NCBI GenBank assembly: GCA_050084515.1
Contig: CM114271.1
Coordinates: 44,826,001 to 44,890,000, forward strand
Direction: 5' to 3'
Source: Blasia pusilla
Lineage: Eukaryota
Length of the DNA: 64,000 bases
The notes below the pieces were generated by a model that saw only the letters and a list, made by a program, of their open reading frames with translations, was not told the DNA's origin and ran no database searches. A program made the translations under genes and the position numbers. Positions 7,104-60,943 of this stretch are shown piece after piece. Every line of letters begins with the position of its first letter. Within the stretch, counting starts at the first letter, position 1.

Positions 7104-7135
7104 CCCTAAAACCCTAAACCCTAAACCCTAAACCC
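7104..7135 (+). repeat. Short interstitial plant telomere-type repeat (CCCTAAA)x4
   Basis: ccctaaa-a-ccctaaa-ccctaaa-ccctaaa-ccc read directly from the sequence. Confidence 0.85.
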
Positions 7136-10748: not shown

Positions 10749-12502
<1,754 letters not shown>

Positions 12503-25280: not shown

Positions 25281-26155
25281 TCGAACACTCAAGTATCTAG
25301 TATTTCTCATTCCAACATATATAAACATATCATATTTCTTTCCACATATTTTATTTGTAGACCAAGCTCTATACATGCTCTTTTTTTCATGTCATCACGT
25401 TCTCAATATAGTGAGTGTCTCTTCAATTATCAAATTATGAAGATATTTGATTAAAACACTAAACGTGTGTACAATATTGTTGAGAACTGATCATCTTGAA
25501 GGTGATGGTTGTATATGGTCTTCCTTGAATCAAGATGCACACCTCAGCCAAACAAGATTGAGAGAACTGAAGCTTTAATTGCAACTGTGTATGAGGAAAT
25601 ACAATTAGAGAAGATCATCACGATAAAAGCACACTTAAAGAGGGTTGAAGAGGTATCTGTCGAATACTACATTCAAGGTCTTTTGGATGAGGCTAAAGAA
25701 AATGAATCTCTTCCTTATTGAAGGAATCGTGATTTGAATAAGAAAAGGGGAATGTATAATAAGACAAACAAGAAGGAACAAGATGTCCAAAACAACTATT
25801 AAGAGTGGTCACAAAAAAGTAAGTAACATGTTTAATGTATGGAATTTGGTGTATGTGAAGTGTTATATCTCTTAAAGATATTGGTATACCTTTGTTGTCA
25901 TAAATTTATTTCTTGTAGTGTACCTTTGAATGAGTGGCTTTTAGTTAGGTTCCATAGTGACAATGATCTATCTTTGTCTTTCGCTATATATTTTCAAATG
26001 ATATGGGAAAGACCTTGGGACAAAGCTTGTTCAAGTGAGATTGAGAAGTCCACTTTAAAAGAGTTCGTTGCATTTTTTTAGATGACTTGTAAGTATCACT
26101 CAAGCAAAACCTACTATTGGTAGATTTTGGGTCCAAAGTTTATACGTAATGAGTG

Positions 26156-29100
26156 TGTCGTGCTCATACACATCATTATACAACATACATCGCTATCACC
26201 AAACATACACACAAATACGGACGATCCCATGCTAACTCATGCAATACACACAACTAGACGAGAGGTACAAAAATATTTCCAATTAAATCAAGGAAATCTC
26301 TCTCAACATCTCAAACCAAACTCTCCATGGTGTGCACTCTCTCTCATGTCAAACCAAACCCACTCTCCTAATGAGAGGCTTGGATAACACACACAAGGCA
26401 TGGAGGACCATTGCTCCGCCGCCTTATGCCAAGAGGTTCAACAAAGAGAGAATGAGCTCTCAAGCTGTCTTGGAAGTATACCCCCTTCCTTCTCCGAAGC
26501 TCTCTCCTCGGTAACTTATGCTTGCATGTCATCTCCTTGGCTCTTGACCTATTGTAGCGGGTCAAGGGTCACTTCCCAAAGTGGAAAGTAAACTATACTA
26601 TAAATGGTAATGTACCCAAAATAGTAAGTTATCTATATGGCTCCAAATGAGCCGAAACAAAGGGGAAACCTGCTCTCTCATGTTATATGTGGCCTCAGCA
26701 GGTCATCCTCGACTTCATGAGGCTGTCCTCCAATATCTCCAAAGGTGCTCTACTAGATATCGCCGATCTATCTGTGGATCCAACTCCGCAGCGGCTCCAC
26801 GCGTAACAACAACGGCGACCTCCATCAGGGCAACCCCGCACATCCAACCAAGATCGTCCATATCTCTGGTTGGTCCGTCGATGCCACGGATTCGGCATCG
26901 GATAACCTCAATGCCATAGCGGCAACTACTATTGTAGGTGCTCTATCTGAGCAGCCATCCCAGCCTCACGCGTGACGTCTCTCTTGACACGTCTAGGTGG
27001 CGGGACTCTCCCTCCTCCACGGGAAACTCCACCACCCCCTCAAGCGAATCCAACTCTTCATCCCCCAACATGACCACCTGGTGCACGACCTCTAGGCTCA
27101 TACGGACCAGCAATTGGCTCTGATGCCCTCTCTGCCTCTCAGTCCGGACGTAACTCATGGTGTAGGTGAAACATTTGGCACGTGTGTGACACTACCTCTG
27201 AGAATAGTCACACTGATAACCTCCTAGTGCAGCACCATCTCCTCCTCCATTCTGAGGCACGCGTCCATGACCTTGACGAGTGCAATCGTGCTCATGATGG
27301 GCTCCACCACACGACCAACAAATAATCATAGGCGGCTGCTGGTGAGCGGCATATGCAGGCGTAGGTCTTTATGGCACAAGCTCGCGCTAACCTCCATGCG
27401 CTCCCGATGCCTCTATGAGAATCCTCCACGTTGCTGCATTGGTGGTGCAAATACTCGTGGCTGCTCTCGCCCAAAACTCATGGTGGCTATGATCTCCTCT
27501 ACCATGTTGCGCTCAATATTCTCAGCGGTCCTAAATACATCTTTCAACGTAAGTGAGGTGTTCATAAGAAGCACCCCTTCCCGCACCGGTGTCCGTAGGG
27601 TTCGGTCCTTCATCGCATACCATGACTGGATAGCATGTGACTCTCTCATCCCCTGAGTGACGTTAATCAACCGGCGCAAGCGAGTGTAGGCCTCCAAAAA
27701 ACTCTCACCCGAGCACCTTTGGAAGTCGTGGATGCTCCGCAACTTCTCCATCTGTACCCCCTGGTAGCTCATCTGTAACTCAACCACGGGGTTGAACTTA
27801 GGACGAACCCAATTGGACTATGCAAGTGCTCCATTGCAAGTTATCCCTCCTAAAACATCACTTGTGGAAAAAGCCTCTCATGACTCCTCCTCCTCATTGA
27901 GAAATGGCTCAGTCCATGACACATAATGTGGGTCATAGTAGAGTCTCCATGCCTCATTCTCCTTGGTATATTGGTGGGAGAACTCATGGTAATTGTCAAT
28001 GGGTGCCCCCTTTAGGTGCTCGAACATACCATTCCATGTTTTGAATGGGTTGAACTCTCTAGAGTTTCTAGCCAACTAGGTCTGAGTCACACCAACTCCT
28101 AAACTCTACAATGAAGTCGTGTAACTCTATAGTGCCTATACCACCCAAAAACCTATGCGGTCCTCTATCCCGGTCATCCATCTCGTACGGCCAACTTATA
28201 GGACCACTTAATATGTGTGGTGATGCACTAACAACATCCTCTACTCTCTCCCCCTTGTCTGAAGATGACACAGAAGGAGATCAAAGTGATCTCTCATATG
28301 GAGACCCTCGAAACCTCGCACCACTCCGGATAAATCCTCTAGACCTACTCTCAACTCCACCACCTCGCCTCTCAAAGTCCTGAAAGGACTCCGTGATGAC
28401 CCTTGTGCCCCTCTTGCACGATCACTCTCAATCTCATGAGTAATCACTCAATCACTCAACTAAATAAGCAACACTCAGTCCACACTCCCACTCCCACTCA
28501 GACGTGTATTGTGTGGCAACAAGCGGCGTGGTGCGGAAAATCAACTCACCTATCATCTCATCAACAAAGCATATCCTCAACTCTAGACACGGGTCTATGT
28601 CCGCTAAACCCATACATGAATGATGCTCTCAGCATTTGCATGACCCCCAATATCCCCAAATAACTACCCAATACCCGGAAGTCCTTAACACGTGTAGGGA
28701 AAAAGATCATAATGGGTAACTGAACAAATGTCAATCGCTCCTCAACAACTACAAATCTTGACCCTAACTCGATCATGAAGACAAACTCCTCCAAATAGCA
28801 AGTTGTACTCCTTTGGTACTGAGTATGCTCCAAAATATCCTCGATGTGCGATGCGGGTCCAACGGTACGGTGCGGCACTAAGAGATATACCCTCCTCAAT
28901 AGCACCACACACTCTGTTCTAATGATGTTGCAGCTCCGCGATCAAGATAGTGCGGTGCGGCGATGAGTGGCACGGCGCAAAAATTGGTGGCGAGTTGCGA
29001 CCACAAGCGTCACGGCATGATACTCGATCGTTGTCGAGCGGCTACCACCTTAAGACATAGCAAGTCGTGAAGAAAAATGGGATCCCATCAATCCAAAAGG

Positions 29101-31217
29101 TCATTTGTCATCATTGGTTGATGACAAAACTATATGACAGAATCCAAGTGACGGACAGAGCCCCCGTAGTAACCAACCGTGCAACCATGTAAGGTAGCCT
29201 ACCCACGATAAAGAACGCACGTACGTTGTGCCTTGTCGGACCCAACCACTTGTAACCACGATTGCTTCCAGGCAGAGTAGGAAGTGTAGATGCAGTAGAC
29301 GCGGTGACTATAGGAACGACCATCACGGCGGCTGCAGACAGAATGCGACAAAGGGTTGCAAGCCACAAAGCAACGGATGGCGGGACTATGGCAAGACATA
29401 GTCCCCCGATTGCATTGCAAACTGCGGCACAAACGTGGTAGGTCACGCCAGAGCCACATCGGAGCAGTTGCCGCTTATGCGGGCTGACTGAGCGACTGAG
29501 AGTAAGGTTGAATGCGGTCGGTCAACAGTCGACAAATCTGGAAAATAGTCGTAGCTCCAGATAGCAACAATCCGTGCTAGTGGTGGGTGGCGTAAGATCC
29601 GTGGCGGCTGCAGTGAGGAAGTAGCCGTGTCAGCGGGTTGTTAGCAATAGACGGGGCGGATGTGGCGTTGAGGGCAGGCCGTGGCAAATCGGGGACAAGC
29701 AGGGCGGTAGTCGAGCAAGCACGGACTCCGGAAGGTCAAAGGCCGACAAAAAATCGCAAAGTCGGAGCGCGTGAGGGTAAAGACCCAACATCAATATTAG
29801 CTACTCCCGGAGTCGAGAAGGTCATCAGCTGGACGGCGATTGAAGCAACAGGCGGAAAATCCCGTAGCGGCGGTCGTGGCATGGTAGTGTGAAGAAAGGG
29901 TAGGCCTAACGGGACGCAATAGGGAGGGCACCCTCCCCCCTTTTCTTGTCATCTTACTCAAATAAATCCTGGGAAAATTGGGTCTACTCCCTAAATCTTT
30001 CCCAATTTTGGCTTCAACTCACACTCTTCACAAAAAAATAGGGTCAAATCCCCTGATAAACAATTTTCACCCCAACTTCTACCTCAAAGGACATGTGCCC
30101 TTGTCTTATCCACATAAGTAAAAGGAATTTTTTTCCCACTTCTCAAAAATATTTCTACCCAGGGATTTTAGAAATTTCACTCACACCTTCCAATAGTGGC
30201 GATGGTAGCCACACGAGAACTATTGTAACTTATTTCTCATAAAATGAAATTGTGCACCATTTCTTCCACAAAATACACAGCTTCTTGATCTAAAAATTTG
30301 TCAAAGCGATTTCTCCATATGATCTTCCACCAAAAATTGAATGGAATTTTTATGCACCCCACTGTCTCTTTCTCCTACGCAAATTTTGGCAACGCTTCCG
30401 CGCTGATTTCTCCCAAGGAAAACTTCACACGTGTAAAATCAGCACTCAGAGGGGCACATGGTGTTGCCGAGAGCACCGACATGGGGACATTCGCCCTCAT
30501 CCTCAATATCTAATGAAAATTGGGTAGCGCTTCTGCGTGCAATTATTCCCTACAGAAATTAGCACTGAAAAATAGCAAACTCGAGCGGCTCTTGCTCCGG
30601 CGAGCACTCCCATGAGCTGCTGAATGGGGAACATGGTCCCCAACCTGGACATCAACGAGTGACTAGGAAGCTCCTCCATTGAAGCTCTCTCACTCTCTCA
30701 TTCTCTCTTTGATCAAGGAAATCTCTCTCAACATCTCACACCAAACTCTCAATGGTATGCACTCTCTCTTGTGTTGAACCAAACCCACTCTCCTAATGAG
30801 AGGCTTGGGTTACACACACAAGGCAAGGGGGACCATAGCTCCTCCGCCTCATGCCAAGAGGATCAACAAAGAGAGAATGAGCTGTGAAGCTCTCGCTCTT
30901 GGAGGTATACTCCCTTCCCTCTCCGAAGCTCTCTCCTCGGTAACTTATGCTTGCAAGTCACCTCCTTTGCTCTTGACCTGCTGTAGCAGGTAAAGGGTCA
31001 CTAACCAAAGTAGAAAGTCAACTATACTCCAAATGGTAACTTATCCAAAATAGTAAGTTTATCTATATGGCTCCAAATTAGTTGAAACGAACAGGAGACC
31101 TGCTCTCTTAGGTTACCCGTGGCCTCAACAGGTCATCCTCGATCTCCTGAGGCTGTCCTCCAATATCTCCAAAGATGCTCTATTAGATCTCTCTGATCTA
31201 TCCTAAAAGTCGTGAGA
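26156..31217 (-). mobile_element. Family-1 split-repeat element with internal deletion (A1, 5' region, gag, A2, B2)
   Basis: A1 ~30712-31217. Gag 26773-28440 matches 35770-37484. Deletion junction at 26772/26773. A2 ~26284-26772 lacks its first ~14 bp. B2 26156-26283 ends GCACGACA. Confidence 0.85.
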
Positions 31218-33100: not shown

Positions 33101-33679
33101 TATTAAATTTTACATTTTCCAAGTAGAACAACAAGGTTGATGATATATTACACATTATTTAAAAACAAGTTTAAGATTGTATAAACTTAAAGTTTCTTAA
33201 TTATTTGGTTTGCACTTGGATCCTTTTTTGGCTCAATGTTATCACATCCTTTTCAAAACCAATTTGATAGAGAAGTATTTGCAAGTTCATGTTATATGTA
33301 GTTTTATTCGAGCTCCACTTTTGTTAGTGGTTGAATGATCATGCCATCCAAGTGGAGTAGAGACTCAGAGACAAATGATTAAACCCCCGTGTAGATGAAC
33401 TTAAGAATTGATTCAATATATACCATCAACTATACAAGGAGCATGTTGCTAGTATGATGAAGACGCCAAGAAATTTTCATGATAGAGTTTCAGTGAGCTT
33501 CTAAAGGCTTGGATGCCTACTCATCTCTTGGACTCTTCATTTATTTTTTGGTCTGATTTTTACAGGTATTAAAATTTTCTTTGTTGTAATGGTGTTGTAT
33601 ACATCCAACATTCCAAGCTCTATGTGGAATTTTATATTAGTTGTGAGAAAACAAAATGTGACGTAAATACTCAAATATG

Positions 33680-34239
33680 TGTCACGTCCTTTAGGATAGA
33701 TCGGTGAGATCTAGTAGAGCGTCTTCAAGAGTAGTGGAGGACAGGTCGAGGATGACTTGCTGAGGCCCCTAGAGGCAGGTCATCCCCTTCGTTTTGGCTC
33801 CGGGAGGTAGGTCATCCCCTTCGTTTTGCTGCTGAGGCCCCGGGAGGCAGGTCATCCCCTTCGTTTTGGCTCATTTGGAGCCATATTGAGGAACTTACTA
33901 TTTTAGGTAAGTACCATTTTGAGTATATGATCGACTTTATATTTTTGGTAAGTGGCCCTTGACCTCCTACATCACGTCAAGAGCCAAAGAGGTGACTTGG
34001 GAGAATAGGTTACCATGGAGAGAGCTTGGGAGAAGGGAGGGGTATATATCCCAAGGAGAGAGAGCTTGAGAGCTCATTCTCTCTTTGTTGAACCTCTTGG
34101 CATGAGGCGGTAGAGCTATGGTCCCTTGCCTTGTGAGTATAACCCAAGCCTCTCATTAGGAGAGTGGGTTTGGTTTGACATGAGAGAGAGTGCACACCTT
34201 TGGGAGCTATGGTGTGAGATTGTGTAGAGAGCGATTGGA
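33680..34239 (+). repeat. Split direct repeat A1
   Basis: Near-identical to 43064-43584, apart from a rearranged block at 33745-33860. Not followed by B. Confidence 0.92.
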
Positions 34240-35907
34240 TCTTACTTTACAAAGAGAGAATGCGAGAATGAGAGAGTGAGAGAGCTTCATGGGGGAACTC
34301 GCTGGTCAATCGTTGTTTTTGCAGGTTGGGGACCATGTTCCCCATTCAACTGCTCATGGGAGTGCTCATCGGAGCAAGGGTTGCTTGGATTGTTCTTTGC
34401 ATTTGCCGAGTTTTCGTGTGGAAGAGTGGCGCGCGGAAGCGCTGCCCAATTTTTGATAGTGATTGAGTATGGGGGCGGGTTGCCCCATGCCGGTGCTTTT
34501 GGGAGCACCATGTTGCTTTCTGATTTGCATTTTTATAGGTTTTACATTTTTTTTGGGAGGAATTAGCACGGAAGCGTTGCCGAATATTGGGTAGAAGAAA
34601 GAGACATTGGGCTTTACGACAGTTCCCGTCAATTTTACTCAAATGTCCAATTCCAAATGTTTTTTGATGCAGGTGTAGATCGTGAAGCTGTGCACGCTGT
34701 GCAATAACCAGTGCGCAATTTGGAGTTGCGAGCAAAAAGTTATGGTTAATCTTGAAAAACTGTCATTGCTAGGAGATTTGTATGGTTAAATTGTGCAAAC
34801 CCTAAACCAACCGCCACACCGGCGGCGGCCGTCGCCGTTATAGTCACCGTCAACCATCAACGGTCAACTTTCACCGTCCATGGTCAACCGTCACCAGCGA
34901 CGGTCAACTGTCATTGTCAATGGTCCACCGTCCATTGTCCACCCTTGGTTGCCATTGCCGCCGTTAAGGAGTGGAGGGTCTTCCACAACGTTCGTTGATT
35001 CTCGGACTTGCGTCGCCATCACGTACTTTGTTTTGGCCGCCACCGTCATCAACTTGTGATGGCATATGACCTCCTGTTATAGTGTTTGAGTTTTGATATC
35101 CTGGTGCTTGTTGTGATTGGTAGCCGCTCAACGACGATCAGGTACCGTGCCGTGACGCCCGTAGCTGCAACGCGCCGCCGATTGCCATGTCGTGCCGCTC
35201 GTGGCCGCACCGCACCATCTTGATTGCGGAGCCGCTCTGGCATTGTGGAGCAGAGTGTGGGTTTATTTTTGATTGAGGAGGGTATGCCGCCGAGTGCCGC
35301 ATCCCATCATCGAGGGTCGTGCCGTTCGTAGCCGTTCCGTGCCGCCGCAACGCCGCACCGTTCCGTTGGAACTGCACCGTCTATCGAGGAGTTTTGAGCA
35401 ACATCGGTATGGGAGGAGTATCACTTGCTGATTGGAGGAGTTGTCTCCACGACCGAGTTGGGGTCGAGATTCGCAGTTGTTGAGGAGCGACATCGACATG
35501 TGTTCAAGTTACCCATTATGGTCCTTTACCTTGCACGTGTAAGGGATTATGGGATTTGGGTAGTTTATTTGGGGATATTGGGTGTGTGAATGGTGAGAGC
35601 ATCATTTATGTATGTGATTTAGGGGACATAGACCTGTGTGGGATATCCGGAGTTGAGGGTAGGTTGTCGATGAGATGATAGCCTGGTCGATTTGCCGCAC
35701 CACGCCGCTTATTGCCGCACGTTACATCTCGGGGAGGGAGAGTGAAGATCGAGTGCCGCATGTTTGGGATGAGTGATTGAGGGATTACTCGCGAGGCAAG
35801 AGTGATCGGGTGAGAAGGGAACGAGGGTCATCACGGCATCCATTCGGGACTTTGAGAGGCGAGGTGGTGAACCCGACAGTAGCTCTAGAGGTTTTACGGG
35901 GAGTGGC

Positions 35908-37100
35908 GTGAGGTTCCGAGGGTCTTCACTTCAGGGACCACCTCGACCTCCTTCTGTGTCATCGTCAGACAAGGGGGAGGGTGTAGAGGAATTTGTGAGC
36001 ACATCGCCACACAATGTGAGTGGTCCTACTTGTTGGGCGTACGATATGGACGACCGAGGTAGAGGACCGCGTATTTTTTCAGGTGTAGTAGGTACGATTG
36101 AGTTCACAATTTCATAGCAGAGTTTAGGAGTTGGTGCGACTCCCAGCAGGCCATGAACTCTAGAGAGTTCAACACGTTTACAACATGGAACGGTATGTTC
36201 CAGCATTTAGAGGGGGCACCCATGGACGATTACCATGAGTTCTCCCACAGATATGCCCAGGAGATTGAGGCATGGCGACTCTGCTACGACCCCCACTATG
36301 TGTCATGGACGGAGCCGTTCCCAGATGAGGAGGAGGAGTCATGAGAGGCTACTTCCTCTTCCACTAGTGATGTTTTAGGAGGGGTCATTCGCACTGGAGC
36401 AGTTGCACCGTCTAGTCGGGTTCGTCCCAGGTTCAACCCTGTGGTTGAGTTCTTTGCTGAGTTGAGGGCGAGCTACCAAGGGGTATGGACAGAAAAGTTG
36501 CGGAGCATCCACAACTTCCAGAGGCGCACGGGTGAGAGTTTACGTGAGGCTTACACTCGCTTGCGCCGGTTGATCAACGTTACTCAGGGGGTGACGGAGG
36601 CTAAGGTTATCCAGTCATGGTACGCGATGCGGGACGAGACTCTACGACCACGGGTGCGGGAGGGGGTGCTTCTTATGAACATCTCCCCTACGTTGAGAGA
36701 TGTTTTTAGGACCGCCGAGAACATTAAGCGCAACATGGAGGAGGAGAGCGTAGCCACCATGGGTTCTAAGCAAGAGCAATCGCGATTGGCTCGCACCACG
36801 TGTGCAGCAACGTGGACTCCGAGATAGGTCAAGTGTGGCACCACGAGCTCAGGGAGGATACCGGGAGCCCGTGGCACAGAGACATGCGCCTTCATATGCG
36901 GCTCAACAGAAGCCGCCTACTATTACTTGTTGGCCATGTGGAAGAGCCCATCATCAGCGCCATTGCACTCGTCAGGGTCATGGACGTATGCCTCAGCATG
37001 GAGGAGGAGATGGTGCTCCACCAGGAGGTTATCAGTGTGACTATTGTTAGAGGTATGGTCATACACGCACCAAGTGTTTACGTTTACATCCTGAGTTACG
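35908..37100 (+). pseudogene. gag: gag (capsid-like region and two zinc knuckles)
   Basis: FQRRTGESLREAYTRLRRLI retrotransposon-gag motif. Knuckles CWPCGRAHHQRHC and CDYC*RYGHTRTKC. Stops and frameshifts present, true start uncertain. Confidence 0.8.
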
Positions 37101-37959
37101 TTCAGACCGAGGGCCAGAGAGGGCACCAGAGTGAGTAGCCGGTCCGGGTGGGCCTAGAGATCATGCACCAGGTGGTCCCGTTGGGGGACGAGGAGCTCGA
37201 GTTGCCCGATAGGGTGGTGGAGCTGCTTGTGGAGGAGGTAGAGTACCACCACCTAGATGCGCCGAGGGAGACGTTGGACGTGAGGTTGGGATGGCTGCTC
37301 AGATATAGCAGCTACAGGAGCAGATTGCCGCTATGGCATTGAGGTTACCTGATGCCAGATCCGTGGCATCGACATCATATGGAGCAGCTAGAGATCTGGA
37401 GGATCCTGGTTGGATGTCCGGGGCTGCCTAGATGGAGGCCGCCGCTATTGTGACGCGTGGAGCAGCCGTAGAGTTGGATCCACAACGAGAAGCCAGAAAA
37501 CAGACTAGGCTTCCTCAATCTTTCACGTTGTCCAAAGCGATGAGGATCCCATCGATGGGTCCTCATCAAAGTTCCTAGAGAGTTGGTGATGTTGTTGGTG
37601 TGCAGGCACGGAGGGCGATGGGAGAAGCGAGTGCAACGACTCCTATTGTTGATGCTCATGAGGGGCATCTGTCGAGCACATTGTTGGGGGCGGCCACCGT
37701 TGTGTACCGCACTCCTTTATTTTCTGCTTCGGATGTTATGACGTTGGGGGGTACGCCCGCCGAGGCATTTTGGCTGGCCGCGTTGCTATGTGAGCGCAGA
37801 GTTGGAGTTCTTGCATCACGTTCAGAGGTGATTGTAGAGGAGGTGATGGACCTGCCCTTGGAGCGGATGCTCGGACCGTCCACGTCAGATTCATGGCAAG
37901 CTGCGGCTGCTAGAATGGCGGAGATGCCCGCTAGACCCGCGATAGAGTATGCCATGGCT

Positions 37960-38376
37960 TCTCCTAGTGTTGTGTTGCTGGATAACCAAGGAGAGGTCTT
38001 CCAATTGGTGAGTCTTGGAGGAAGAGCTTTTAGTCCGCAACGCGTCTTGTTGGATTCAGGAGCGCAACCCCTGATGTTGGGAAAAGCGTCATTCAGAGGA
38101 TTGGGCTTGACGAGAGCCGATGTGGAGCGTTGTCCATTCCGGATACAGACATCCTTGGGTGGAGCGAATACCACACAGTATATCACCCAACAAGAGGTCA
38201 TGGTGAGGATTTGCCCGGGACATCCTACTGATGAGTCTGTGGTGCGCGCCAAGGCGATAGTGACTGATACAGAGTCCTACGACGTCTTGGTTGGTGAAGG
38301 AGTGTTATACCCGATGGGGTTTTCCCTGGATAACTGGGAGGAGTGCGTCCTACAGACCAAGATAGCAGTCAGGTGA
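37960..38376 (+). pseudogene. Retropepsin aspartic protease domain
   Basis: RVLLDSGAQPLMLG catalytic motif and C-terminal YDVLVG. Confidence 0.85.
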
Positions 38377-38761
38377 TGGGCGCCTTAGCTCATTATCCGT
38401 TCGATTCACAGGTGCAGTGATTGAGCAACGGCCAGGAGAGATGGCGACCTTAGCAGCATTTAGCAGTGCCATCACTTGGCCTAGTGATTTGATTGAGGGA
38501 CATGTCCATGCAGAGGATACTCCCGTTCCTAACATTTCTATGGAGAGGAGTGTTATGGTAGGTGCATCATTCCGTTGAGGAGAGGTGCCAATGTGGGGCT
38601 CGACTGAGGAGCTTCGACGATTGGCAGATGAGCACATGCAGACCGCGTGGAGCGAGGCATTTGCACCGGAGCGTGACGGGTTTGAGAAACCTGAGGTAGC
38701 AGGGAGTGGTATGATGACACCCTTGGATACCACACCCATTGTGTGGTGTACCCCGGAGGAG

Positions 38762-39380
38762 GGTATTTGAGTGTTAGATCTCTTTGGAGGGATTGGCACT
38801 GGGTTAGCTGCTGTTTTGTAGGCAGGAGTGCGAGTACAACAGTATCTGTATGTATAGGAGAGTGATGATGTTGCAAGGCGCGTCTCACTACGACATGTGG
38901 CGCGATTACGCCTACGTTTTCCCGACTCATTATGCAAGGTCAGCGATCTGAATACCGAGTTCCTTCCGAGGGATATTTCGTTGTTGGGGGCGCAGGACTT
39001 AGAGCGGGTAGGGACCGTTGATTTGGTCATTGCCGGTTGGCCATGTCAAGGCCAATCGAGTGTTGAACGAGGCATGGGTTGGCGGACACTCGGTCCATGT
39101 TGTTTTGGGAGATGTTGAGGGTCTTACGTCAGTTGCAGGAGTACCAGTCTCATTCTCCAACCGACATTGTGGAGAATGTGCCGATCTTAGGAGACTCCCG
39201 GTCACGGGTGGTGACAAGTGTTCATCAAGTGCGTGCCTAGATCGGCCCAACAGTGTTCTTGGGTGCGGCGAGTGTAGGATTCTTGGATGCGGCAAGAAAT
39301 GACGTCGTGATGCCTCTTGGGTCAGGCGATGGACCTGAACTGCTTGACATGGATCCTCAGCTTGGGAGTGGCTGAGCAGC
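38762..39380 (+). pseudogene. DNMT3-like C5-cytosine DNA methyltransferase domain within pol (disabled in this copy)
   Basis: Motif I GI*VLDLFGGIGTGL (38762-), motif IV DLVIAGWPCQGQS (PC at 39041-39046), GLADTRSMLFWEMLRVL, motif VI IVENV (ENV 39172-39180), motif X-like LLGQAMD (39314-). Confidence 0.9.
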
Positions 39381-39688
39381 GTCGTATGAGATCGCAACAG
39401 CTCATAGCGGTTGCGTTGGTGAGCCCCATGCCTACCGAGACGGTGGAGGTAGTGGCTGGGGGCGACACCCGAGGAGATCGGGAGAGACACCCTTGGACTT
39501 CTTGGGAATTTTTGCAAGTACGCAAGGAGATGATAGCCACAACATTGAGCGTGGTTTCGGGCATTGCACGTGGAGGAGATAAGAGTTTGCAGTTGGCTGC
39601 AAGAGAGCGGCTGAGTGTTGTTGTTCGAGACGGGGTTGCACCATAGCAACCAGCGATACCGCGACCGGAGAGTCCTACCGTAGTCACG

Positions 39689-41110
39689 ATGGAGACTTGG
39701 GAGCCATATATGGGCCCTAAGTTGACAGGAGAAGAGCGGCGCCGAATACATCAATTCCTCAAGAGTTATAGGAGCTGCTTTGCGTTTAGCATGGAGGATT
39801 TGGATACGCTGAAGGGACCGGGGATCCGCATTGAGTTGTCGAGTGATACGCCAATCTTCCGACGACCCTACAGGTACAGTGATATGGAGAGGGCTCTGAT
39901 TCAGAGTAGGAGCCAAGACTTGGTCAGAGCAGGACTAGTGGAGATGTCGCATGGACAGTATGCATCTGCCATTGTAATGCCCGCCAAGAAGGATGTGCAT
40001 GACAATTGGACGGATAGGCGGATGTGTGGGGATTACCGACCTATCAATCGGCAGACGAAGTCCGATAGGTATGCCATGCCCACCCCTGAGGAGATCTTTG
40101 ATGCGATTGGTCATGCAAAGGTCTTTAGTTCATTGATTTTTGAAGTCGGATACCATCAACTACCTATCGATTGGAGGACAAAGTAAGACGGCATTTTGGG
40201 GCATCGATCCTCACGGGAAGGATTGTTTGTACCAGTGGCGGTTCTTACCATTTGGGTTAAAGAACGCCCCGGCTGAGTTTCAGAGGGTCATGGATAGGAT
40301 CTTGGCTGGTCTGGATTTTGCTAAGTGTTATATTGATGACATCGTAGTCTTTACCGCCACGGTTGAGGATCATGAGCGACATAAAGAGGAGGTGTTTCGA
40401 CGATTGCAATTACATGGGCTGAAGCTACATCTAGGCAAGTGCAAGTTCTTCTACGACCAGATTGAGTACTTGGGTCATACGATATACCCAGGGGGCCTTG
40501 GTGTTCAGCAAATGAAGGTAGAGGCTATCTCACGCATTCCACGCCCTATAGATGTGAGCCGGGTTCGCGCATTCATGGGATTGGCGAACTTCTATCGGCA
40601 ATACGTAAAGGGATTCGGTTTGATTGCGAAGCCAATGACCTTGCTGACCAAGGTGGATCACGAGTGGCACTGGGGGGATGAGCAGGAGCAAGCATTTCAG
40701 TTGCTCAAGGACATGTTGACGTCTGTGCCCATCTTGAGGAGACCAATCAGGGGGCGTCCTTTCCAATTGCACACAGATTGGAGCATGTTGGGGCTTGCAG
40801 CGGTGCTCACCCAACATGATAATGATAGTAGAGAGTTCGTGGTGGCTTACGCTAGCCGCTCGAACAACGCTGCAGAGGCAAAGTATAGCTCGTATGAGGG
40901 TGAGTGCTTGCTGCGGTGTGGATTGTTGCATATTTCAGGTGTTACTTATTCGGCAACCCCTTGACCATCACCACTGAAGTGGTTGATGGAGTCCGACAAG
41001 CTTACAGGGAAGCTTGTGAGATGGGCTCTGTTGTTGCAGGAGTATGATTTTCAGGTGGTACATAGACCTGGGACGCTCAACCAAGATGCAGATGGGTTGA
41101 GTCGTAAACC
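39689..41110 (+). pseudogene. pol: Reverse transcriptase and RNase H (Ty3/Gypsy type)
   Basis: RMCGDYRPIN, LPFGLKNAPAEFQR, YIDD (40329-40340), LHTDWS, AYASR, YSSYEGE, NQDADGLSR. A few frameshifts. Confidence 0.95.
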
Positions 41111-41399
41111 ATGTTCGAGTCAGCGAGATGCGACTGGAGCTCGATGGCATGGAGAGAGTGATAAGGAGTCGGTGCTAGGATGGCACGCGTCAGCCTATTT
41201 AGGCATGTTGGCTTTGGAGAGCCAGAGTGTGGAGACTTCGATGGCGAGTCCTAATGGAGAGTCCTTAGATCCCGAGGCCAGTGAGGAGACGACAGGTGGC
41301 TGAGATATTCATGATGATGGAGTAGTCTTGGAGTACCTTCATGATCGGCAGCGTTTAGCAATCTTTGAGGTGCTAGAGAGCGAGATCGGATCCTACAGC

Positions 41400-42600
41400 G
41401 GGTCAGACGCTTCCGTTGGGAGGGGACACATGTTTTGAGGGTTTGGGAGGATGGCAGAGTACGCGTAGTGCCACATCTTTCGCAGAAAGCACGACTAGTG
41501 CAGCATGCCCACGAGGAGTTGGGTCACTTTGGGGTGAAGCGGACGTACAGCTTGCTCTAGATTTAGTATTGGTGGCGAGGCATGCAAACTGACGTTCAGC
41601 AGTTTGTTGCCATGTGCATGGTGTGTGATCGGGTCCGAGCATCGTTCCATGCTCTAACTCCACAGTTGCATCCATTACCGATCATGGGCTTAGGGTGTAG
41701 ATGGATTTTGGATTTTGCAGGACCTTTGCCTTTGACAGAATGTCATGGTTGTTATGTGTTGGTGATGGTCGAGCACTTCTCAAAGTGGATCGAGTTGGTT
41801 GCATTGCCTGACAAAGCGAGTGAGGGAGTAGCTTATGCCTTCCTTGACAGAGTGTTGAGTCAATATGGTGCACCGGTTGAGGTGTTGCAGACCATGGTAC
41901 CGAGTTTCGGGGTGAGTTCCAAGCCTTGTGTGATCAAGCGCTGATCGACCACCGCACGACTTGGCGAGATCATCCCGAGGCGGATGGATTAGCGGAGAGA
42001 GTTGTGCAGACGGTGAAGAGAGGTTTACGCAAGTATGGCTTGCACAGAGGTCACCTAGGAGATTGGGACCTCCAGTTGCCATGGTTGGCGATGGGAAACA
42101 GATTCAGCAGGCAGACATCCTTAGCATCTTTTTCACCGTATTTGCTACTTTATGGCCGAGAGCCAGATTTACCTACGGCCATTCGTCGAGATGCTGATGA
42201 GGTGCTGGACCTTGATGACCCAGATGTATGGGTGCGAGCATGTTCTCAGAGGGCTGAGTTGTTTTGGAGAGTGATGCCCATGGCGTTTGAGAACTTGGCG
42301 ATTGCGCAACATCGAGATACGTTGAGGTATGTGACTATTCGGGGAGGTGGTTATCGACCAACTATCGGGAGGTTTCATCGGGGAGATTTTGTCTACTTGC
42401 AGCAGACGGCACCGACGACGTTGGATGTGACTACATGGCGTACTATCCTGAGAGTGCTTGACGTTTTGCCATCCGGTGTTCTTTTGCTGGAGGGACGCGA
42501 TGGTATGGTATGGAAGGACCATGTGCGTAATTGTGCACCATGTCACCTTCCTAACATTGATAGTACAATGGATCCGAGCTTAGTAGTAGTTCCAACAGGC
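41400..42600 (+). pseudogene. DDE integrase with HHCC zinc domain
   Basis: HAHEELGHFG...CMVC, LDFAGP, EHFSKW, DHGTEF (frameshifted), HPEADGLAERVV, SPYLLLYGR. Confidence 0.93.
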
Positions 42601-42606
42601 TTGCGT

Positions 42607-42747
42607 TGTATGTTGTGTGGTTCTGCCCGTGGTGCGGCCACGATGGTGGTCTGTGATGGTTGTTCGAGAGGTTGGCATATGGCATGTCTGACGCCACCTC
42701 TCACTAGGGTTCCTTGGGGACGATGGATGTATGCCACATGTACTTAG
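42607..42747 (+). pseudogene. C-terminal PHD finger fused in frame to integrase
   Basis: CMLC...MVVCDGCSRGWHMACLTPPLTRVPWGRWMYATC fits C4HC3, with the penultimate Cys mutated to Tyr (TGT>TAT). Confidence 0.9.
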
Positions 42748-42930
42748 AGGAGATACTAGGTAGGTTTCGATCCCGACTTTTTCTCTGACATGGATGACAT
42801 GAAGGCGACTAACAATGGGGCCACATGAGCACCCGGCCTTCTTGCTCTTAGCGTCCGGGAGATGTATGTCATGGTAGGTAGGGATAGATGGCTATCTGGA
42901 GTTATAGGGACCTAACCACCAACTAGGGGG

Positions 42931-43061
42931 GCGATTGGAGATACTTTGGTACTTCTTGTCTCGTTGTTTGGATGCCATAAGTTAGCATGGGATCGTGCGT
43001 GTTTGTGTGTGTGTTTGGTGATAGCGATGTATATTGTGTAGCGATGTGTATGCGCACGACA
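42931..43061 (+). repeat. Split direct repeat B1
   Basis: Near-identical to 43578-43706. Ends GCGCACGACA. Confidence 0.92.
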
Positions 43062-43063
43062 AG

Positions 43064-43706
43064 TGTCACGTCCTTTAGGATAGATCGGTGAGATCTAGTA
43101 GAGCGTCTTCAAGAGTAGTGGAGGACAGGCCTAGGAGGTCGAGGATGACTTGCTGAGGCCCTGGAAAACCTGAGAGACCAGGTTTCCCCTTCGTTTTGGC
43201 TCATTTGGAGCCATATTGAGGAACTTACTATTTTAGGTAAGTACCATTTTGAGTATATGATCAGCTTTCTATTTTTTGTAAGTGGCCCTTGACCTCCTAC
43301 ATTAGGTGAAGAGCCAAAGAGGTGACTTGGGAGAATAGGTTACCATGGAGAGAGATTGGGAGAGGGAAGGGGTATATATCCCAATGAGAGAGAGCTTGAG
43401 AGCTCATTCTCTCTTTGTTGAACCTCTTGGCATGAGGCGGCAGAGCTATGGTCCCTTGCCTTGTGAGTATAACCCAAGCCTCTCATTAGGAGAGTGGGTT
43501 TGGTTTGACATGAGAGAGAGTGCACACCTTTGAGAGCTATGGTGTGAGATTGTATAGAGAGAGATTATGTAGAGAGAGATTGGAGATATTTTGGTACTTC
43601 TTGTCTCATTGTTTGGATGCCATGAGTTAGCATGGGATCGTGCGTGTTTGTGTGTGTGTTCGGTGATAGCGATGTATGTTGTGTAGCGATGTGTATGCGC
43701 ACAACA
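43064..43706 (+). repeat. Split direct repeats A2 (43064-43584) and B2 (43578-43706)
   Basis: A2 matches A1 and B2 matches B1. They overlap at GATTGGA. Confidence 0.92.
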
Positions 43707-44832
43707 TATGTTACAAATCTTGGAGATACAAAGTGACCTACTCTGTTCGTGCGCTCACACAAGAGCTTCGATGGAATTGGCCTTGAACATGGATATAACT
43801 CGTCATACGAGAATACGTTATCACTATGGCTCCCGGCTATTTGACTTCTCGAGAAATCAGGGTTTTTACCTAATTTTCTTTGTTTCTATTTATAGAAAAA
43901 ACCGTGAGGGATTGCGTCCTATACCCCCGCGTCATTTGGCATCGCATCTAATCCTACTCCAAAAACCACCTTCATGATATTATTATAACTCCTCCAACGT
44001 CTAAGTCTGAACCATCAGTCCAAGCTTCTCCTTGTATAAGGGGGCCGATCAGTTTAATGTTGAGAATCCAATATTTTTTTGATAGTGACTAATAAATTTG
44101 CTTGAAGTAATTAATTTCAAAGTGGGTTGATTCATTGAATTGTGATGGTGAATATTTGATAATTAGAGAATAAATTTTTCTATCACAAAGTATACAAGTT
44201 TGGGAGCATCTAATTTTTGGCTAGCCAAATCTCACACATCGATGACAAAGATAAATTCCATGGAAGAAAATTTCCAATTGGCCTCTTGAAATTCAAAGTT
44301 TTGATTGTTAATGATCATAGTGCATAACTCCTATTTCCAAACTTGGACAATGATCCACCACAACTATTGGTCAATCAAGCTTTGGGTAGTTATCAGTTGT
44401 GGCCAAACAGTAATGCCAAGAAAACTCAAATTCTTGCACCTTAGTTTTTAAATTAGATTAGAGATTATTTTAGGTTTTTTGGTGAATTCCAATTCCTCTT
44501 TTACAAGAATTTTGAACTTCAATTTATGTTGTTAGTCCTAGTGCTATATGCACATTTTGGCTAGTAGTGTTGTGAGTTATATTTCTATTGTTAAGTTTGA
44601 ATATCTTCCATCATCATAGAAATGAACGTCAATGAATCTTTGTTTATTGAATTTCATGCATCATCATAAGATGCAACATGCATATGATATATTTTTTTCA
44701 TCGTTATTTTTCTAATATTCATGTAATTTCAAGCTACATTGTGGGCTTCTAATGATTTTGAAATTCTTTACATTAAGGAAACTGGTATAGTTATTAAATA
44801 GGTATCATGTGCATACACAATATACATTATGG

Positions 44833-45901
44833 TATCATGCGCATACACAACATACATTGTTGTAATTGAATCTACAAAAAAAACACATAAGATGTCATAC
44901 TAATTCATGACATATAAACATCGAGACAATTGAGTATCAAAATATCTCTAATAAATCAAAATCTTTTATAACGTGCAGACAAATCCATCTCTCCATATTA
45001 TGCCAAACTAAATTTACTCTCCTAATAAGAGGTTTGGATTACTCATAAGGCAAGGAGGACCATAACTCTGTCGCCTCATGCTAAGAGATTCAACAAAGAG
45101 AGAATAAGCGGGGTCTACTTCCTTCCCTCTCCTAAGCTCTCTACGTGGTAACCTATGGTCGCATATCATCTCCTTGGCTCTTGACATGCTGAAGAGAATG
45201 AAGGGTAACTTCCCAAAGTGGAAAGTGAGCTATATTCATAACATTGTATTATCCGAAATAGTAAGTGTATAAATATAGCTCCAAATGAGCAAAAACGAAG
45301 GGAATGTTGGATTCTCAAAATCCACTTCTCTCCCCAACATTAATATGATTGGCCCCCTTATATGAGGAGAAGCCTAGATTGATGCTTCCGACTTAGATGT
45401 TGAAGGAGTCATAGTAATATGACGTAGGTGGTTTATGGAGTAGCGTTATTAGGATTTTATGACCCTATATTGCATAAGGGTCCGGGGCACCCTGACGCGT
45501 CCTAGGAGCGCAGTCCCTGGTATGCCAAGATGATGCAGGGGTCGGGCAAACTTTATCTATAAATAGAAACAAAGAAAAATAGACAAAAAATCTTAGTTTC
45601 CCGAGTGGTGACATAGTCGGGAGCCGCAACGGTAGCACATTCTCGTATGTCGAGTAATCTCAATGTTCAGGTTCCATCTAAGCTCTTCTCTGAGCGCACA
45701 GACGGACTAGGCCACTTTGTATCTCCATGATTTGCAACATATTTTAGTGATTCCCTCGCATTCTTTTTTCTCGTAGGGAAAACCTCCTCTCCAAGGTTAC
45801 TTGAGGCCTCAACAAGTCATTTTGACCTTCTCAGGCTGTCCTCTGGTATCCTCAGAGCCGCCCTGCTAGAAACTCGTCAATCTATCCTACAAGACGTGCC
45901 A
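44833..45901 (-). mobile_element. Solo AB unit of family 1, interrupted by a solo LTR
   Basis: B at 44833-44950, A at 44990-45304 and 45781-45901. ATGG on both flanks (44829-44832, 45902-45905). Confidence 0.75.
45305..45775 (-). mobile_element. Conventional solo LTR with 5-bp TSD
   Basis: TGTTGG...TCGTA on the plus strand, flanked by GGGAA at 45300-45304 and 45776-45780. Homologous to 43711-44073. Confidence 0.8.
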
Positions 45902-59700: not shown

Positions 59701-60830
59701 ATAGGCAAAAAAATCATTCTCTTTGTGGATCGTGTCACAAATTGCTCATATCATGAGAATGGATGTCGCTACAAACTTAGCTACCAATCCTACATTACAA
59801 AGTTTAGATATAAATAAGATTGGAGTCCCATTTATGAACCATATAAAAAATGGTTAATACCATGAGATCAAATGTCACCATGATCGTATACGATAACTTG
59901 TGGGTTCGAATTCTCGAAGTAGTCTCACAGTTTGAAAGTAGTATCAAATTTTTTCCTTCTCCACTCATCAAGTAAGGGATTGGTTGCATTATTTTCTTTT
60001 TCGCTAAATAATCCGTGTTTGTTATAGAAATAAAAATGATTAACTCAACTATTAAGGAAAGGTGAAAAGGATGAACATTCATATCTATCTATCTATATTA
60101 TTATGGGCTACCCCATATGCATAATATGACACGAAAAGACAATTAATAATACTAGTACACTACATCTTGCTCACTAATCTTTTCCCACCCTAGTCATGTC
60201 AATAGCACAATTTTTGGGAGAGCATTTAATTACAAGTGTGGAGGTTGCAAAGTGCAAATTATCATGGAGAATTTTCAATTTTAAGATAGAAAATTTTCAA
60301 AGATTGGATGGATATGAATAGACTTTCAATTTCTCCATCGCGTTAGTGTCGAAGCTCTCATTAATATAAAAATAATTGTCACTCCACGCGGAGTTCGTCT
60401 CCGGATCGTATCTCCAAACATACGGCGTAGAAAACTCTAAACAAGGCATACTAGTTTCAAATAATGGGGTTTTAGTTTAGGGAGGAATGAGGTAAAGTAA
60501 CGTCTTCCGCTAATACGCATGGACTCTTTGTTGATCGTCAATGTTAGTAAGCCACTCCCCCCACGACTGTTTGCCCTTCAATAAGGAAGCTCTTCTATAC
60601 TTCCATCATGAATCCCGCCACTTAGTAGAAGCCGATGAACGACGGCGAAAGCTCTCGTTGAGAATGCGAGTTTGCTCGCGCATGTGTCTGGTGCGGAGGG
60701 GGAAAGGGATTGGCTGTAGGTCACGGAGTGGGGAAGCAGAGCTCGACGCGATGAAGGGGACCGGGATTTCTCGCCGCGTTGCAGGACGCCGATGCTGCCC
60801 TCGTTGCCCTGGTTCCCGGCCGCTTTTGTG

Positions 60831-60900
60831 GTATGTTTCGGATCGTGGAGATGGAAAAAAAAAACGATAAGGGCGTTGTTTGCAATGTTTGAATTCGCAG
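60831..60900 (+). other. Probable 70-nt 5'-UTR intron of the host gene
   Basis: G|GTATGT donor and TTCGCAG| acceptor, 43 nt upstream of the ATG. Confidence 0.5.
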
Positions 60901-60943
60901 GAAGTGAAGCAGGGGAGGGAACCAGTAGGAATTTGGCAGGAGG

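Follow-up and report, generated by a model that had tools for sequence, protein, structure and literature searches.

Does the cytosine methyltransferase-like domain found inside a retrotransposon at this locus belong to the element, which class of DNA methyltransferases (DNMTs) is it related to, and what might it do there? The domain had been recognized in a 64-kb stretch of DNA (hereafter, the window; all positions refer to it) by a sequence-only reading, which regarded it as a DNMT3-like methylase embedded in pol of a land-plant retroelement, between the protease (PR) and reverse transcriptase (RT) regions.

A damaged element and its methylase remnant

We identified, at positions 33679-43714, what is very probably a dead copy (~10 kb) of a Ty3/gypsy-like retrotransposon of the 'Gypsy-DNMT3' kind (Table 1). 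Domains detected by Pfam in this element followed the order RT, RNase H, integrase H2C2, rve and PHD. The PR-RT-RNaseH-IN order of Ty3/gypsy elements was found (RVT_1, RT_RNaseH_2, Integrase_H2C2 and rve), together with flanking direct repeats, and a Marchantia Gag-PR-DNMT protein (P0012) could be aligned by tblastn along positions 36061-39511. The Gag-like region contains an in-frame stop upstream of 36345, and RT, whose YIDD motif is located at 40329-40340, has one frameshift near 40165. In an intact relative (L036 ORF1), a weak Asp_protease_2 match (22.4 bits, below the 24.3-bit cut-off) was present at the place corresponding to the protease. In the leader of RT, an SpeFL match with E 5.8e-4 did not reach the cut-off and was considered a chance match. 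The AAAT flanking the element was not trusted as a target-site duplication, as four matching base pairs are too short and, in AT-rich DNA, carry little weight.

Table 1. Features of the methylase-bearing element, with positions in the 64-kb window.
Feature	Position	Strand	Evidence or remark
Candidate 4-bp target-site duplication AAAT	33673..33676, partner 43715-43718	+	Read from flanks; tentative
Terminal repeat A1 (5' LTR-like)	33679..34236	+	Against 43063-43566, 472/494 aligned positions identical (95.5%)
Gag-like region, broken	36061..36884	+	tblastn with P0012 residues 9-275, 44% identity, more than one frame
CCHC-type zinc knuckle (CWPCG...HQRHC)	36928..36966	+	UniRef name of homologue P0012: 'CCHC-type domain' protein
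Aspartic protease region	37579..38376	+	Active-site motif LLDSGAQP at 38047-38070
DNMT3-like C5-methyltransferase domain remnant	38753..39382	+	Between protease and RT
Deletion scar	39280..39313	+	P0012 residues 1053-1179 without counterpart (tblastn)
Candidate leaky stop at the DNMT-RT boundary: in-frame TAG, then CAA CCA (UAG-CAR-YYA)	39644..39652	+	
RT and start of RNase H	39647..40964	+	RVT_1 E 1.2e-22; RT_RNaseH_2 E 8.9e-23
RNase H, C-terminal part	40965..41342	+	
Integrase, interrupted by stops and a frameshift; H2C2 zinc finger, rve core	41369..42606	+	Integrase_H2C2 E 1.3e-5; rve E 7.2e-6
PHD finger, integrase C-terminus	42607..42747	+	PF00628 at 34 bits (cut-off 24), E 3.1e-8
Repeat B1	42933..43069	+	93% identical to 43578-43714
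Terminal repeat A2	43063..43566	+	Pair of A1
Repeat B2, 3' end of element	43578..43714	+	Pair of B1

The repeats of the window element are arranged as A-coding-B-A-B, and the B-then-A and A-then-B adjacency was seen again in two other relics in the window. This layout was resolved in the window only and not in the related loci searched for repeats, six of which had nothing beyond an old A-like pair: no repeats were seen in L036, L023 and L028, L052 had just a 122-nt match between one end and the other, L048, L054 and L074 possessed old repeat pairs 9-12 kb apart, and L059 and L060 contained tandem arrays only.

In this copy, the methylase domain retains motif I (VLDLFGGIGTGL, 38771-38806), motif IV (DLVIAGWPCQG, 39020-39052), motif VI (IVENVP, 39166-39183), a remnant of motif VIII (LGAASVG, 39259-39279) and a motif X-like LLGQAMD (39314-39334). 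Their order is unpermuted, and all of the motifs listed in the sequence-only reading (I, IV, VI and X-like) were indeed present. However, two positions that it had given in brackets as residues are in fact occupied by stop codons, (R) by TGA at 38768 and (Q) by TAG at 38819; homologues have Cys and Gln there, respectively. With two further stops at 38855 (TAG) and 39238, the domain contains four in-frame stops. It also contains two frameshifts, near 39082 and within 39280-39313, since the ENV motif lies in a frame other than that of motifs I, IV and X. Approximately 127 residues were lost at the deletion scar, from the remainder of motif VIII through the target-recognition region to the whole of motif IX. 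For the Pfam scan, the window domain was represented by three broken pieces; PF00145 (cut-off 22 bits) reached only 11.3 bits on the broken window piece alone (E 0.23), and a DNA_processg_A match on such pieces (E 0.094) was attributed to chance. With E 0.23 in this damaged piece, the absence of a C5-methyltransferase HMM match, which had been proposed as an argument against the assignment, would misfire on this copy. The window copy is dead and no methylase is made from it.

None of the indexed sequencing entries that contain the stretch was recorded as RNA; raw-read runs of the same species label were aligned to the window to assess RNA. Stranded RNA reads spanned the whole element, with ~10-100 times more reads on one strand. 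Only 6 of 6105 and 6 of 6511 reads were at least 99% alike to the window copy, which indicates that the RNA came from sister copies. The RNA reads carried the stretch that is deleted in the window copy and most of them had no TAG at 38855; 44 reads continued before 39315 into SVSEASRRH, which corresponds to the motif IX-X linker of the homologues.

DNMT3 affinity, spread and conservation of the domain

A profile search of PDB structures returned DNMT3A/3B/3C in rows 1-29 (E 7e-19 to 8e-15), whereas DRM scored 1e-8 or weaker, HaeIII/HhaI 2.5e-7 or weaker and DNMT2 1.4e-4 or weaker; no DNMT1 or CMT row appeared at E <= 1. The alignment blocks spanned motifs I, IV, VI, VIII, IX and X. In DRM chains, just the C-terminal part could be aligned, to profile positions 1-121. 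The nearest structures were those of DNA-bound DNMT3A/B. An AlphaFold model of the domain (pLDDT 90.6, pTM 0.89) was used for a Foldseek search, and all matches listed, to rank 50, were DNMT3A/B/C, with target-normalised TM values of 0.79-0.84 against isolated methyltransferase-domain chains. Thus, sequence profile and predicted fold agree in ranking DNMT3 ahead of the other DNMT classes in similarity to the domain. This agrees with the original assignment, and the unpermuted motifs and partial DRM alignments also bear out its view that the domain is not a captured DRM. The PWWP and ADD domains were not found by Pfam in P0012, P0013, P0034 or L036 ORF1; protist and algal DNMT3s are likewise described without companion domains in the available text of PMC12344493.

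We then consider how widely the domain occurs. When a 159-aa window piece (motifs I to IV) was compared with 5.8 billion proteins, 39 matched at E <= 1e-3, and a precomputed PF00145 match was available for 34 of them. The best match was 58% identical (E 1.6e-40). By these scores, the similarity of the piece to the family is far above chance. In an exhaustive HMMER search, 441 representatives passed E <= 1e-3, of which 91 also passed E <= 1e-10. Relatives of the domain were present in Marchantia, Calypogeia, Riccia and Sphagnum as well as in green algae, and no homologue match in the protein searches bore the name Klebsormidium. The nearest named relatives were from liverworts and Sphagnum mosses. 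The description of the element as a land-plant one is consistent with this, and has as its basis these relatives and the domain tree, which comprises transposon-borne domains only. When the HMM check that had been suggested was applied to intact homologues, PF00145 scored 35-45 bits (cut-off 22) in all seven that were scanned, and 51 bits in L036 ORF1. Besides L036, Mp_4g09160 of Marchantia is an example of a natural intact copy.

All 79 metagenome loci that were fetched encode a relative of the domain, mostly full-length, and in 68 of them a stop or frame change occurs inside it; most copies are degraded. The homologues possess motifs I, IV, VI, VIII, IX and X, in that order. Three residues did not vary among the 31 diverse sequences compared, namely the catalytic Cys, the motif VI (ENV) Glu and a motif VIII Arg (R225); motif I, which binds SAM, was conserved in the consensus. 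Between the intact L036 and L037, dN/dS was 0.17 (dS 0.24, 403 codons). Other locus pairs were saturated (dS > 1.3), and the 13 computable dN/dS values ranged from 0.13 to 0.32. The methylase domain is not a recent capture but an integral component of the element, under purifying selection. A DNMT3-like domain is almost certainly fixed in a retrotransposon family, and the earlier proposal that the element carries its own methylase therefore holds for the family, in which the domain is general, but not for the window copy, which cannot make one.

Two other explanations of the locus were weighed against this spread. It might be a one-off event, in which a single copy took up a piece of a host DNMT3 or the assembly was chimeric, and the window itself would fit, as it contains one DNMT-bearing copy and its other relics are gag only. 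However, proteins from Marchantia, Calypogeia and Sphagnum have the domain in the corresponding position, it recurs in the 79 metagenome loci, and it is covered at high multiplicity by RNA and DNA reads of the source organism. The presence of the domain throughout a large retrotransposon family, for which the sequence-only reading had proposed to look in other copies, makes such an event extremely improbable. The locus might also be a domesticated host gene, i.e., a transposon-derived host methyltransferase, as the UniRef name of some Marchantia relatives, 'DNA (cytosine-5-)-methyltransferase', could suggest. The four stops, two frameshifts and large deletion in the window domain, its location inside a complete element with terminal repeats, and the multi-copy and mostly degraded state of the relatives leave hardly any probability to this explanation. 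We favor a domain that is a regular component of a retrotransposon family.

Two positions of the methylase were observed among related elements. A protein labelled Mesostigma (P0215) likewise has the Gag-PR-DNMT layout, and a sister clade with the layout RT-RH-DNMT-IN-PHD comprised Haematococcus and other algal-type sequences. The PHD finger was present at the same place in L036, L052, P0200, P0211, P0214 and P0208, and its fusion with integrase is common to both layouts (DNMT before RT, and DNMT after RNase H). Seven long matches that had no gag/RT context were also scanned. Some were DIRS-like (RVT_1 and/or Dam; P0129, P0065 and P0107), P0096 was Copia-like (RVT_2), three had PF00145 only, and none of the seven contained a host reader domain.

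As a separate observation, gene models derived from such elements carry the host annotation 'DNA (cytosine-5-)-methyltransferase'; a bacterial genome bin contains one of them.

Relation to published Gypsy-DNMT3 elements

A Gypsy-DNMT3 element of a streptophyte alga, KnitGypsy-Dnmt3 of Klebsormidium nitens, has been in print since 2018, and the available text describes it as having gypsy-type domains, repeats in the order A-coding-B-A-B and a Ka/Ks < 0.2 (PMC5890265). Our literature search found the name KnitGypsy-Dnmt3 in this paper alone; a preprint refers to the element as 'streptophyte Gypsy-DNMT3' (bioRxiv 10.64898/2026.05.21.726589). The window family is a land-plant member of this known kind. 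No description of bryophyte Gypsy-DNMT3 elements was found in a literature search (Marchantia/liverwort, DNMT3, retrotransposon), and the accessible portions of PMC11982613 and PMC8616336 are without them. A search for a PHD finger together with integrase gave no paper with the term 'PHD finger' among those listed, and no description of the conserved stop after the methylase (see below), the integrase PHD finger or the two methylase positions was found in the literature searched.

It could be argued that the bryophyte elements took a host DNMT3 separately and that their likeness to the Klebsormidium element is convergence. Repeated independent captures of DNMTs are on record, even twice within the DIRS elements of Symbiodinium, as far as the available text goes (PMC5890265), related domains occur in the DIRS-like (RVT_1 and Dam) and Copia-like (RVT_2) proteins mentioned above, and the comparison with the Klebsormidium element is one of published description and not of sequence. 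On the other hand, the window element has the same unusual A-coding-B-A-B layout that is reported for that element (PMC5890265, available text). In addition, the Mesostigma-labelled layout, the algal sister clade and the PHD finger shared by both layouts make an origin before land plants the more economical explanation. Independent capture is thus unlikely, and a common, older origin is more probable.

A conserved stop, a possible mode of action and comparison with known systems

The coding plan of the family is Gag, CCHC, PR and the DNMT3-like domain, then an in-frame UAG, followed by RT, RNase H, integrase and PHD. The placement of the domain between protease and RT was therefore correctly read, but instead of being embedded in pol the domain ends the Gag-PR frame, upstream of the conserved stop. 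Of 45 loci with a match to the 50 aa downstream of the stop, 36 have a stop and then CAR at the homologous place. The exact UAG-CAR-YYA was present in the window and five loci, including the intact L036, whereas the second codon after the stop was YYN, but not YYA, in 31 of the 36 loci; TAA was found in place of TAG in 13 of the 36. The gene models P0012, P0013, P0001 and P0005 all terminate at this conserved stop.

Leaky UAG codons of the tobacco mosaic virus type have the context UAG-CAR-YYA, and gammaretroviruses have a gag UAG. From this consensus and the conservation of the stop, we infer that the UAG may be read through. The element RNA would be translated mostly to Gag-PR-DNMT, and a minority of ribosomes would pass the UAG, in its tobacco mosaic virus-like CAR-YYA context, to produce the RT-RNaseH-IN-PHD extension. 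As this minority readthrough would take place downstream of the methylase, the latter would be made in Gag-like amounts; it would enter the particle as a Gag fusion and be freed by the protease. The methylase might then act de novo on cytosines of the double-stranded cDNA of the element or of a fresh insertion, and the integrase PHD finger might read the state of the histone H3 tail and steer integration. Intact copies probably methylate DNA. A more tentative suggestion is that they act on cDNA of the element itself or on a new insertion.

An alternative is that the domain is selected but does not methylate DNA, serving instead in binding or methylation of element RNA, or as a DNA-binding or oligomerising module of the particle. 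According to the available text of PMC5890265, no de novo methylation was seen when the Klebsormidium domain was assayed in yeast, an outcome that the authors do not take as decisive, and RNA methylation is raised there for another transposon-borne DNMT; the domain is also fused to Gag-PR, the RNA-packaging side of the polyprotein. However, human DNMT3B also failed in the same yeast assay (PMC5890265, available text), the three invariant residues and the SAM-binding motif I are retained, and the nearest structures are DNA-bound DNMT3A/B, with DNMT2 far weaker. A role apart from DNA methylation therefore appears quite improbable, and DNA methylation by intact copies is preferred.

A broader model can be put forward tentatively: Gypsy-DNMT3 may be an old clade of the green lineage (chlorophytes, streptophyte algae and bryophytes) that combines a DNMT3-like writer with an integrase-PHD reader and that, in land plants, is transcribed with a complete methylase, which a leaky UAG would bring to Gag-like amounts, so that new copies would be pre-methylated. 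If so, these elements could add de novo methylation to bryophyte genomes, and counts of 'DNMT3 genes' in such genomes could be inflated or confounded. Cytosine methylation is the main weapon of plants against transposons, and a transposon family with its own de novo methylase would be an odd twist in this conflict. The liverwort and moss relatives bring an element kind known from an alga into land plants, including Marchantia, which has good genetics, and the conserved stop, the integrase PHD finger and the alternative methylase positions provide concrete experimental handles. A practical warning is that gene models of these elements pass as host methyltransferases.

Several known systems resemble parts of this element. 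The best match to its methylase domain, in both sequence and fold, was the catalytic domain of animal DNMT3A/3B/3C, with which it shares the forms of motifs I, IV, VI, VIII, IX and X (e.g., LF.GI.TGL, AHR.R..W.NL and ER..GF). In contrast to these enzymes, to which it is ~20-23% identical, the element domain is fused to retroelement proteins with no PWWP/ADD found, its target-recognition region (motifs VIII-IX) is longer, and its motif IV reads GWPCQ where theirs reads GSPCN. Plant DRM2/NtDRM are, like the element domain, DNMT3 relatives that occur in plants; however, their motifs are circularly permuted, whereas those of the element are not, and their matches were weaker by ~10 or more orders of magnitude. 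The in-frame UAG would part an abundant upstream product from the polymerase, as do the leaky UAG codons of tobacco mosaic virus and gammaretroviruses. Unlike in these viruses, the stop of the element comes after protease and methylase and not after Gag alone, and most element loci differ from the tobacco mosaic virus UAG-CAR-YYA by a YYN second codon.

Among retrotransposons, KnitGypsy-Dnmt3 and the window family have in common the gypsy domains, an unpermuted DNMT3-related domain in the polyprotein, the A-coding-B-A-B layout and a streptophyte host, and both are under purifying selection (Ka/Ks < 0.2 in the available description of the former, 0.17 in the latter). The hosts differ, being land plants here (liverwort and moss relatives) and an alga for KnitGypsy-Dnmt3, to which the family is likened by its published description. 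The SymbioDIRS-Dnmt3 elements of Symbiodinium are also A-coding-B-A-B retrotransposons with a DNMT3-type domain, and their enzymes are reported to methylate CG de novo in yeast (PMC5890265, available text). Their published description gives them a tyrosine recombinase, whereas the integrase of the window element is of the DDE type and includes an H2C2 finger. Finally, chromoviruses are, like the window element, Ty3/gypsy retrotransposons in which a chromatin-reader domain is attached to the C-terminus of integrase. Pfam found no chromodomain there in the window element and the relatives scanned; the reader of chromoviruses is a chromodomain, whereas that of the window family is a PHD finger, and a methylase is present in addition.

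The window element and neighboring relics

G+C content was 47-55% across 34001-44000, versus 31-44% over most of the remaining window; elsewhere it reached 47-50% only at 26001-30000 and 60001-62000, both of which contained other relics. In the window element, a Ty3/gypsy-like copy, the second repeat (B) flanks A2, the downstream copy of the LTR-like repeat (A), and no B was found upstream of A1 in the window repeat comparison, indicating a layout of A - coding - B - A - B. [quoted passage not shown] Stops or frameshifts occurred in every part, and therefore this copy is dead, a relic.

A sequence-only reading had placed a DNMT3-like methylase between protease and RT. We translated positions 38400-39800 in three frames and found all the motifs it had named, in unpermuted order. 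The residues that it had bracketed were stop codons, TGA at 38768 and TAG at 38819, and two further stops were present at 38855 and 39238. Motif VI did not share the frame of motifs I, IV and X, implying two frameshifts, and residues 1053-1179 of the Marchantia reference protein P0012 had no counterpart between 39279 and 39314. The domain is broken in this copy, which explains the weak PF00145 score of the window piece itself (E 0.23, Pfam); intact homologs were above the cut-off in all seven cases scanned.

Features of the window element and of a shorter relic
Feature	Position	Strand	Basis or remark
Repeat A1	33679-34236		matches A2, 472/494 aligned positions
Repeat A2	43063-43566		partner of A1
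Repeat B, first copy	42933-43069		directly before A2; 93% identity to second copy
Repeat B, second copy	43578-43714		directly after A2
Motif I, VLDLFGGIGTGL	38771-38806		three-frame translation
Motif IV, DLVIAGWPCQG	39020-39052		three-frame translation
Motif VI, IVENVP	39166-39183		three-frame translation
Motif VIII stump, LGAASVG	39259-39279		three-frame translation
Motif X-like, LLGQAMD	39314-39334		three-frame translation
A-like repeats, shorter relic	31215-30720 and 26772-26295	-	repeat comparison
B-like repeat, shorter relic	26283-26156	-	repeat comparison
gag remnant, shorter relic	28166-27168	-	protein alignment

Gypsy relics crowd the window. A related element left a second, shorter relic at 26156-31215 (minus strand), which coincided with the raised G+C at 26001-30000 and had no methylase, RT or integrase. 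Another B-then-A case was seen at 10751-12817 (plus strand), where an A-like repeat (10751-11185) preceded a B repeat (12375-12503) that was followed directly by A (12561-12817). Just past the 3' end of the window element, an A-like repeat (45000-45306, minus strand) was ∼77-84% like the repeat at 30814-31091 (within 30720-31103). The DNMT element may lie nested among clustered older relatives. Additional remnants were gag-like (57701-58181, plus strand, 38% identity to P0012) and RNase H-like (15344-15586, minus strand, 32% identity to Marchantia P0023).

Occurrence and class of the methylase domain

The methylase is a family trait, since the domain was present in other copies, namely 39 protein matches and 79 metagenome loci, in accord with the earlier proposal that the retroelement carries its own methylase. 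The proteins were detected with a 159-residue query covering motifs I to IV (E <= 1e-3; best E 1.6e-40, 58% identity); 34 of the 39 had a precomputed PF00145 match, and named sources among them were Marchantia polymorpha, Calypogeia fissa and Sphagnum troendelagicum. An exhaustive HMMER search returned 441 representatives at E <= 1e-3. Profile searches added Marchantia paleacea, Riccia sorocarpa, Sphagnum fallax, S. tenellum, Haematococcus lacustris and a EukProt entry labeled Mesostigma. Vascular-plant names were absent from the matches listed in two profile searches (48 and 120 rows), which is weak evidence because these searches depended on a word index and considered at most 8000 candidates. 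Marchantia P0012 and P0013 were gag-CCHC-PR-DNMT polyproteins of ∼1250 residues, and in P0023 DNMT was joined to RT and RNase H. Among the 79 loci found by scanning JGI metagenome contigs, most encoded a full-length domain riddled with stops, and 11 had a stop-free, frame-intact domain that was near full length in six. One 455-residue protein (P0223, 49% identity to the query domain), designated DNA cytosine methyltransferase in a Candidatus Obscuribacterales genome bin at NCBI, most likely stems from transposon DNA of a eukaryote that ended up in a bacterial MAG during binning.

When a profile built from six homologs was searched against all PDB sequences, the top 29 rows were all DNMT3A, 3B or 3C (E 7e-19 to 8e-15); DRM gave 1e-8 to 5e-7, M.HaeIII and M.HhaI values from 2.5e-7 and DNMT2 from 1.4e-4, and no DNMT1 or chromomethylase was present at E <= 1. 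In the aligned blocks, motifs I, IV, VI, VIII, IX and X had their DNMT3 forms. DRM chains aligned by their C-terminal part only, as expected of a permuted enzyme; with its motifs unpermuted, the domain is not a DRM, as had been argued from the sequence. An AlphaFold model based on 31 sequences (pLDDT 90.6, pTM 0.89) retrieved only DNMT3A/B/C among the best 50 Foldseek rows listed, with target-normalized TM of 0.79-0.84 for isolated methyltransferase-domain chains. The DNMT3-like assignment, which both searches against solved structures favor, thus draws on a profile and a predicted fold. The catalytic Cys, the Glu of ENV and one Arg of motif VIII were invariant in 31 diverse sequences. In two loci of the algal-type clade (L052 and L058), motif IV was GWACQD or GWECQD, in which the Pro of Pro-Cys was replaced and the Cys kept.

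We placed 82 domain sequences, all transposon-borne, in a quick maximum-likelihood tree with no outgroup, reading the window copy with X at each break. This copy fell inside a 13-row clade with Calypogeia, Marchantia and related rows (SH-aLRT 99), and RT-RH-DNMT-IN sequences formed a separate 33-row clade (SH-aLRT 99). In algal-type relatives (P0200, P0214, P0208, L052 and Haematococcus P0211), the methylase lies between RNase H and integrase, and a PHD finger also follows the integrase. Of seven long matches scanned that lacked gag/RT context, several proved DIRS-like (RVT_1 and/or Dam) and one Copia-like; a host reader domain occurred in none. The related domain occurred alongside a Dam adenine methylase in P0065 and P0107, one of which also had RVT_1 (DIRS-like), and within a Copia-type polyprotein with RVT_2 and a retroviral SH3-like domain in P0096.

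Conserved stop, selection and transcription

DNMT and RT of the window copy share one frame, split only by the TAG at 39644; CAA CCA comes next. The intact metagenome locus L036 has an ORF1 (976-5082) for gag, PR and DNMT (PF00145, 51 bits), then TAG CAG TTA and an in-frame ORF2 (5086-8226) coding for RT, RNase H, integrase and PHD. Among 45 loci matching the 50 residues downstream of the TAG in the window, 36 had a stop at the homologous place with CAA or CAG as the next codon (23 TAG, 13 TAA), three had no stop and six were apparently misaligned. Gene models from Marchantia, Calypogeia and metagenomes (P0012, P0013, P0001 and P0005) all terminated at the homologous stop. Thus, an in-frame stop after the DNMT domain is conserved across the aligned sequences. 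UAG-CAR-YYA is known from the plant-virus literature as a leaky stop of the tobacco mosaic virus type, and five of the 36 loci had this full context. The conserved position together with this context suggests programmed readthrough between DNMT and RT.

The catalytic residues are conserved under purifying selection. Two intact copies, L036 and L037, differed at 8% of nucleotides with a dN/dS of 0.17 over 403 codons (dS 0.24); more distant pairs were saturated, and the 13 pairs with a computable ratio gave 0.13-0.32.

For the window's organism, two runs of DNA contigs and two of stranded RNA were mapped onto 33600-43800. The family is highly repeated in this organism and is transcribed: RNA reads spanned the entire element, and first mates were 10-100 times commoner on the minus strand, an excess that corresponds to sense transcripts in most stranded libraries. 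Almost none of the reads derive from the window copy; only 6/6105 and 6/6511 mapped reads were >= 99% alike to it. At 39315, 44 reads continued upstream into sequence missing from the window, whose translation, SVSEASRRH, may be compared with SVSEASRRQ immediately before LGQAMD in homologs. Most reads, as well as every contig of run X2, lacked three letters at 38854 and hence the TAG at 38855. Transcribed sister copies therefore keep what the window copy lost. Both RNA runs also skipped 71 bases just past the PHD finger (window 42714-42786; 7 and 40 reads), a gap explained either by a small intron or by transcribed sister copies of different length. In run X1, DNA contigs joined the internal region straight to B2, skipping B1-A2 (window 42929-43579), or joined A1 straight to B2 (window 34248-43586), as expected from unequal recombination between B copies and between A copies, which gives single-B and solo A-B forms.

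Possible function and relation to known elements

A DNMT3-like domain is fixed in this gypsy-type family. The main translation product would be Gag-PR-DNMT, and stop readthrough would yield a minority product extended by RT-RNaseH-IN-PHD. The methylase may be packaged along with Gag, freed by the protease and, as hypothesized after de Mendoza et al., methylate the element's cDNA or new insertion de novo; the PHD finger might steer integration.

In the accessible text of de Mendoza et al. (2018, PMC5890265), KnitGypsy-Dnmt3 of Klebsormidium nitens has an unpermuted DNMT3-related domain in a gypsy Pol polyprotein, repeats with "the same structure as a DIRS retrotransposon", i.e., A-coding-B-A-B, and Ka/Ks < 0.2; a yeast assay detected no methylation and was considered inconclusive by its authors. 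DNMT3 in streptophyte retrotransposons (PMC12344493) and "streptophytes (Gypsy-DNMT3)" (bioRxiv 10.64898/2026.05.21.726589) were mentioned later. No published mention of liverworts, mosses or Marchantia as hosts of Gypsy-DNMT3 elements was found in the passages covered, which came largely from open-access main texts. As far as the accessible description goes, the window element resembles KnitGypsy-Dnmt3 in its unpermuted DNMT3-like domain, gypsy-type organization and A-coding-B-A-B repeats. We regard the finding as genuine and moderately interesting: a land-plant member, represented in the window by a relic, of a kind of element described in an alga.
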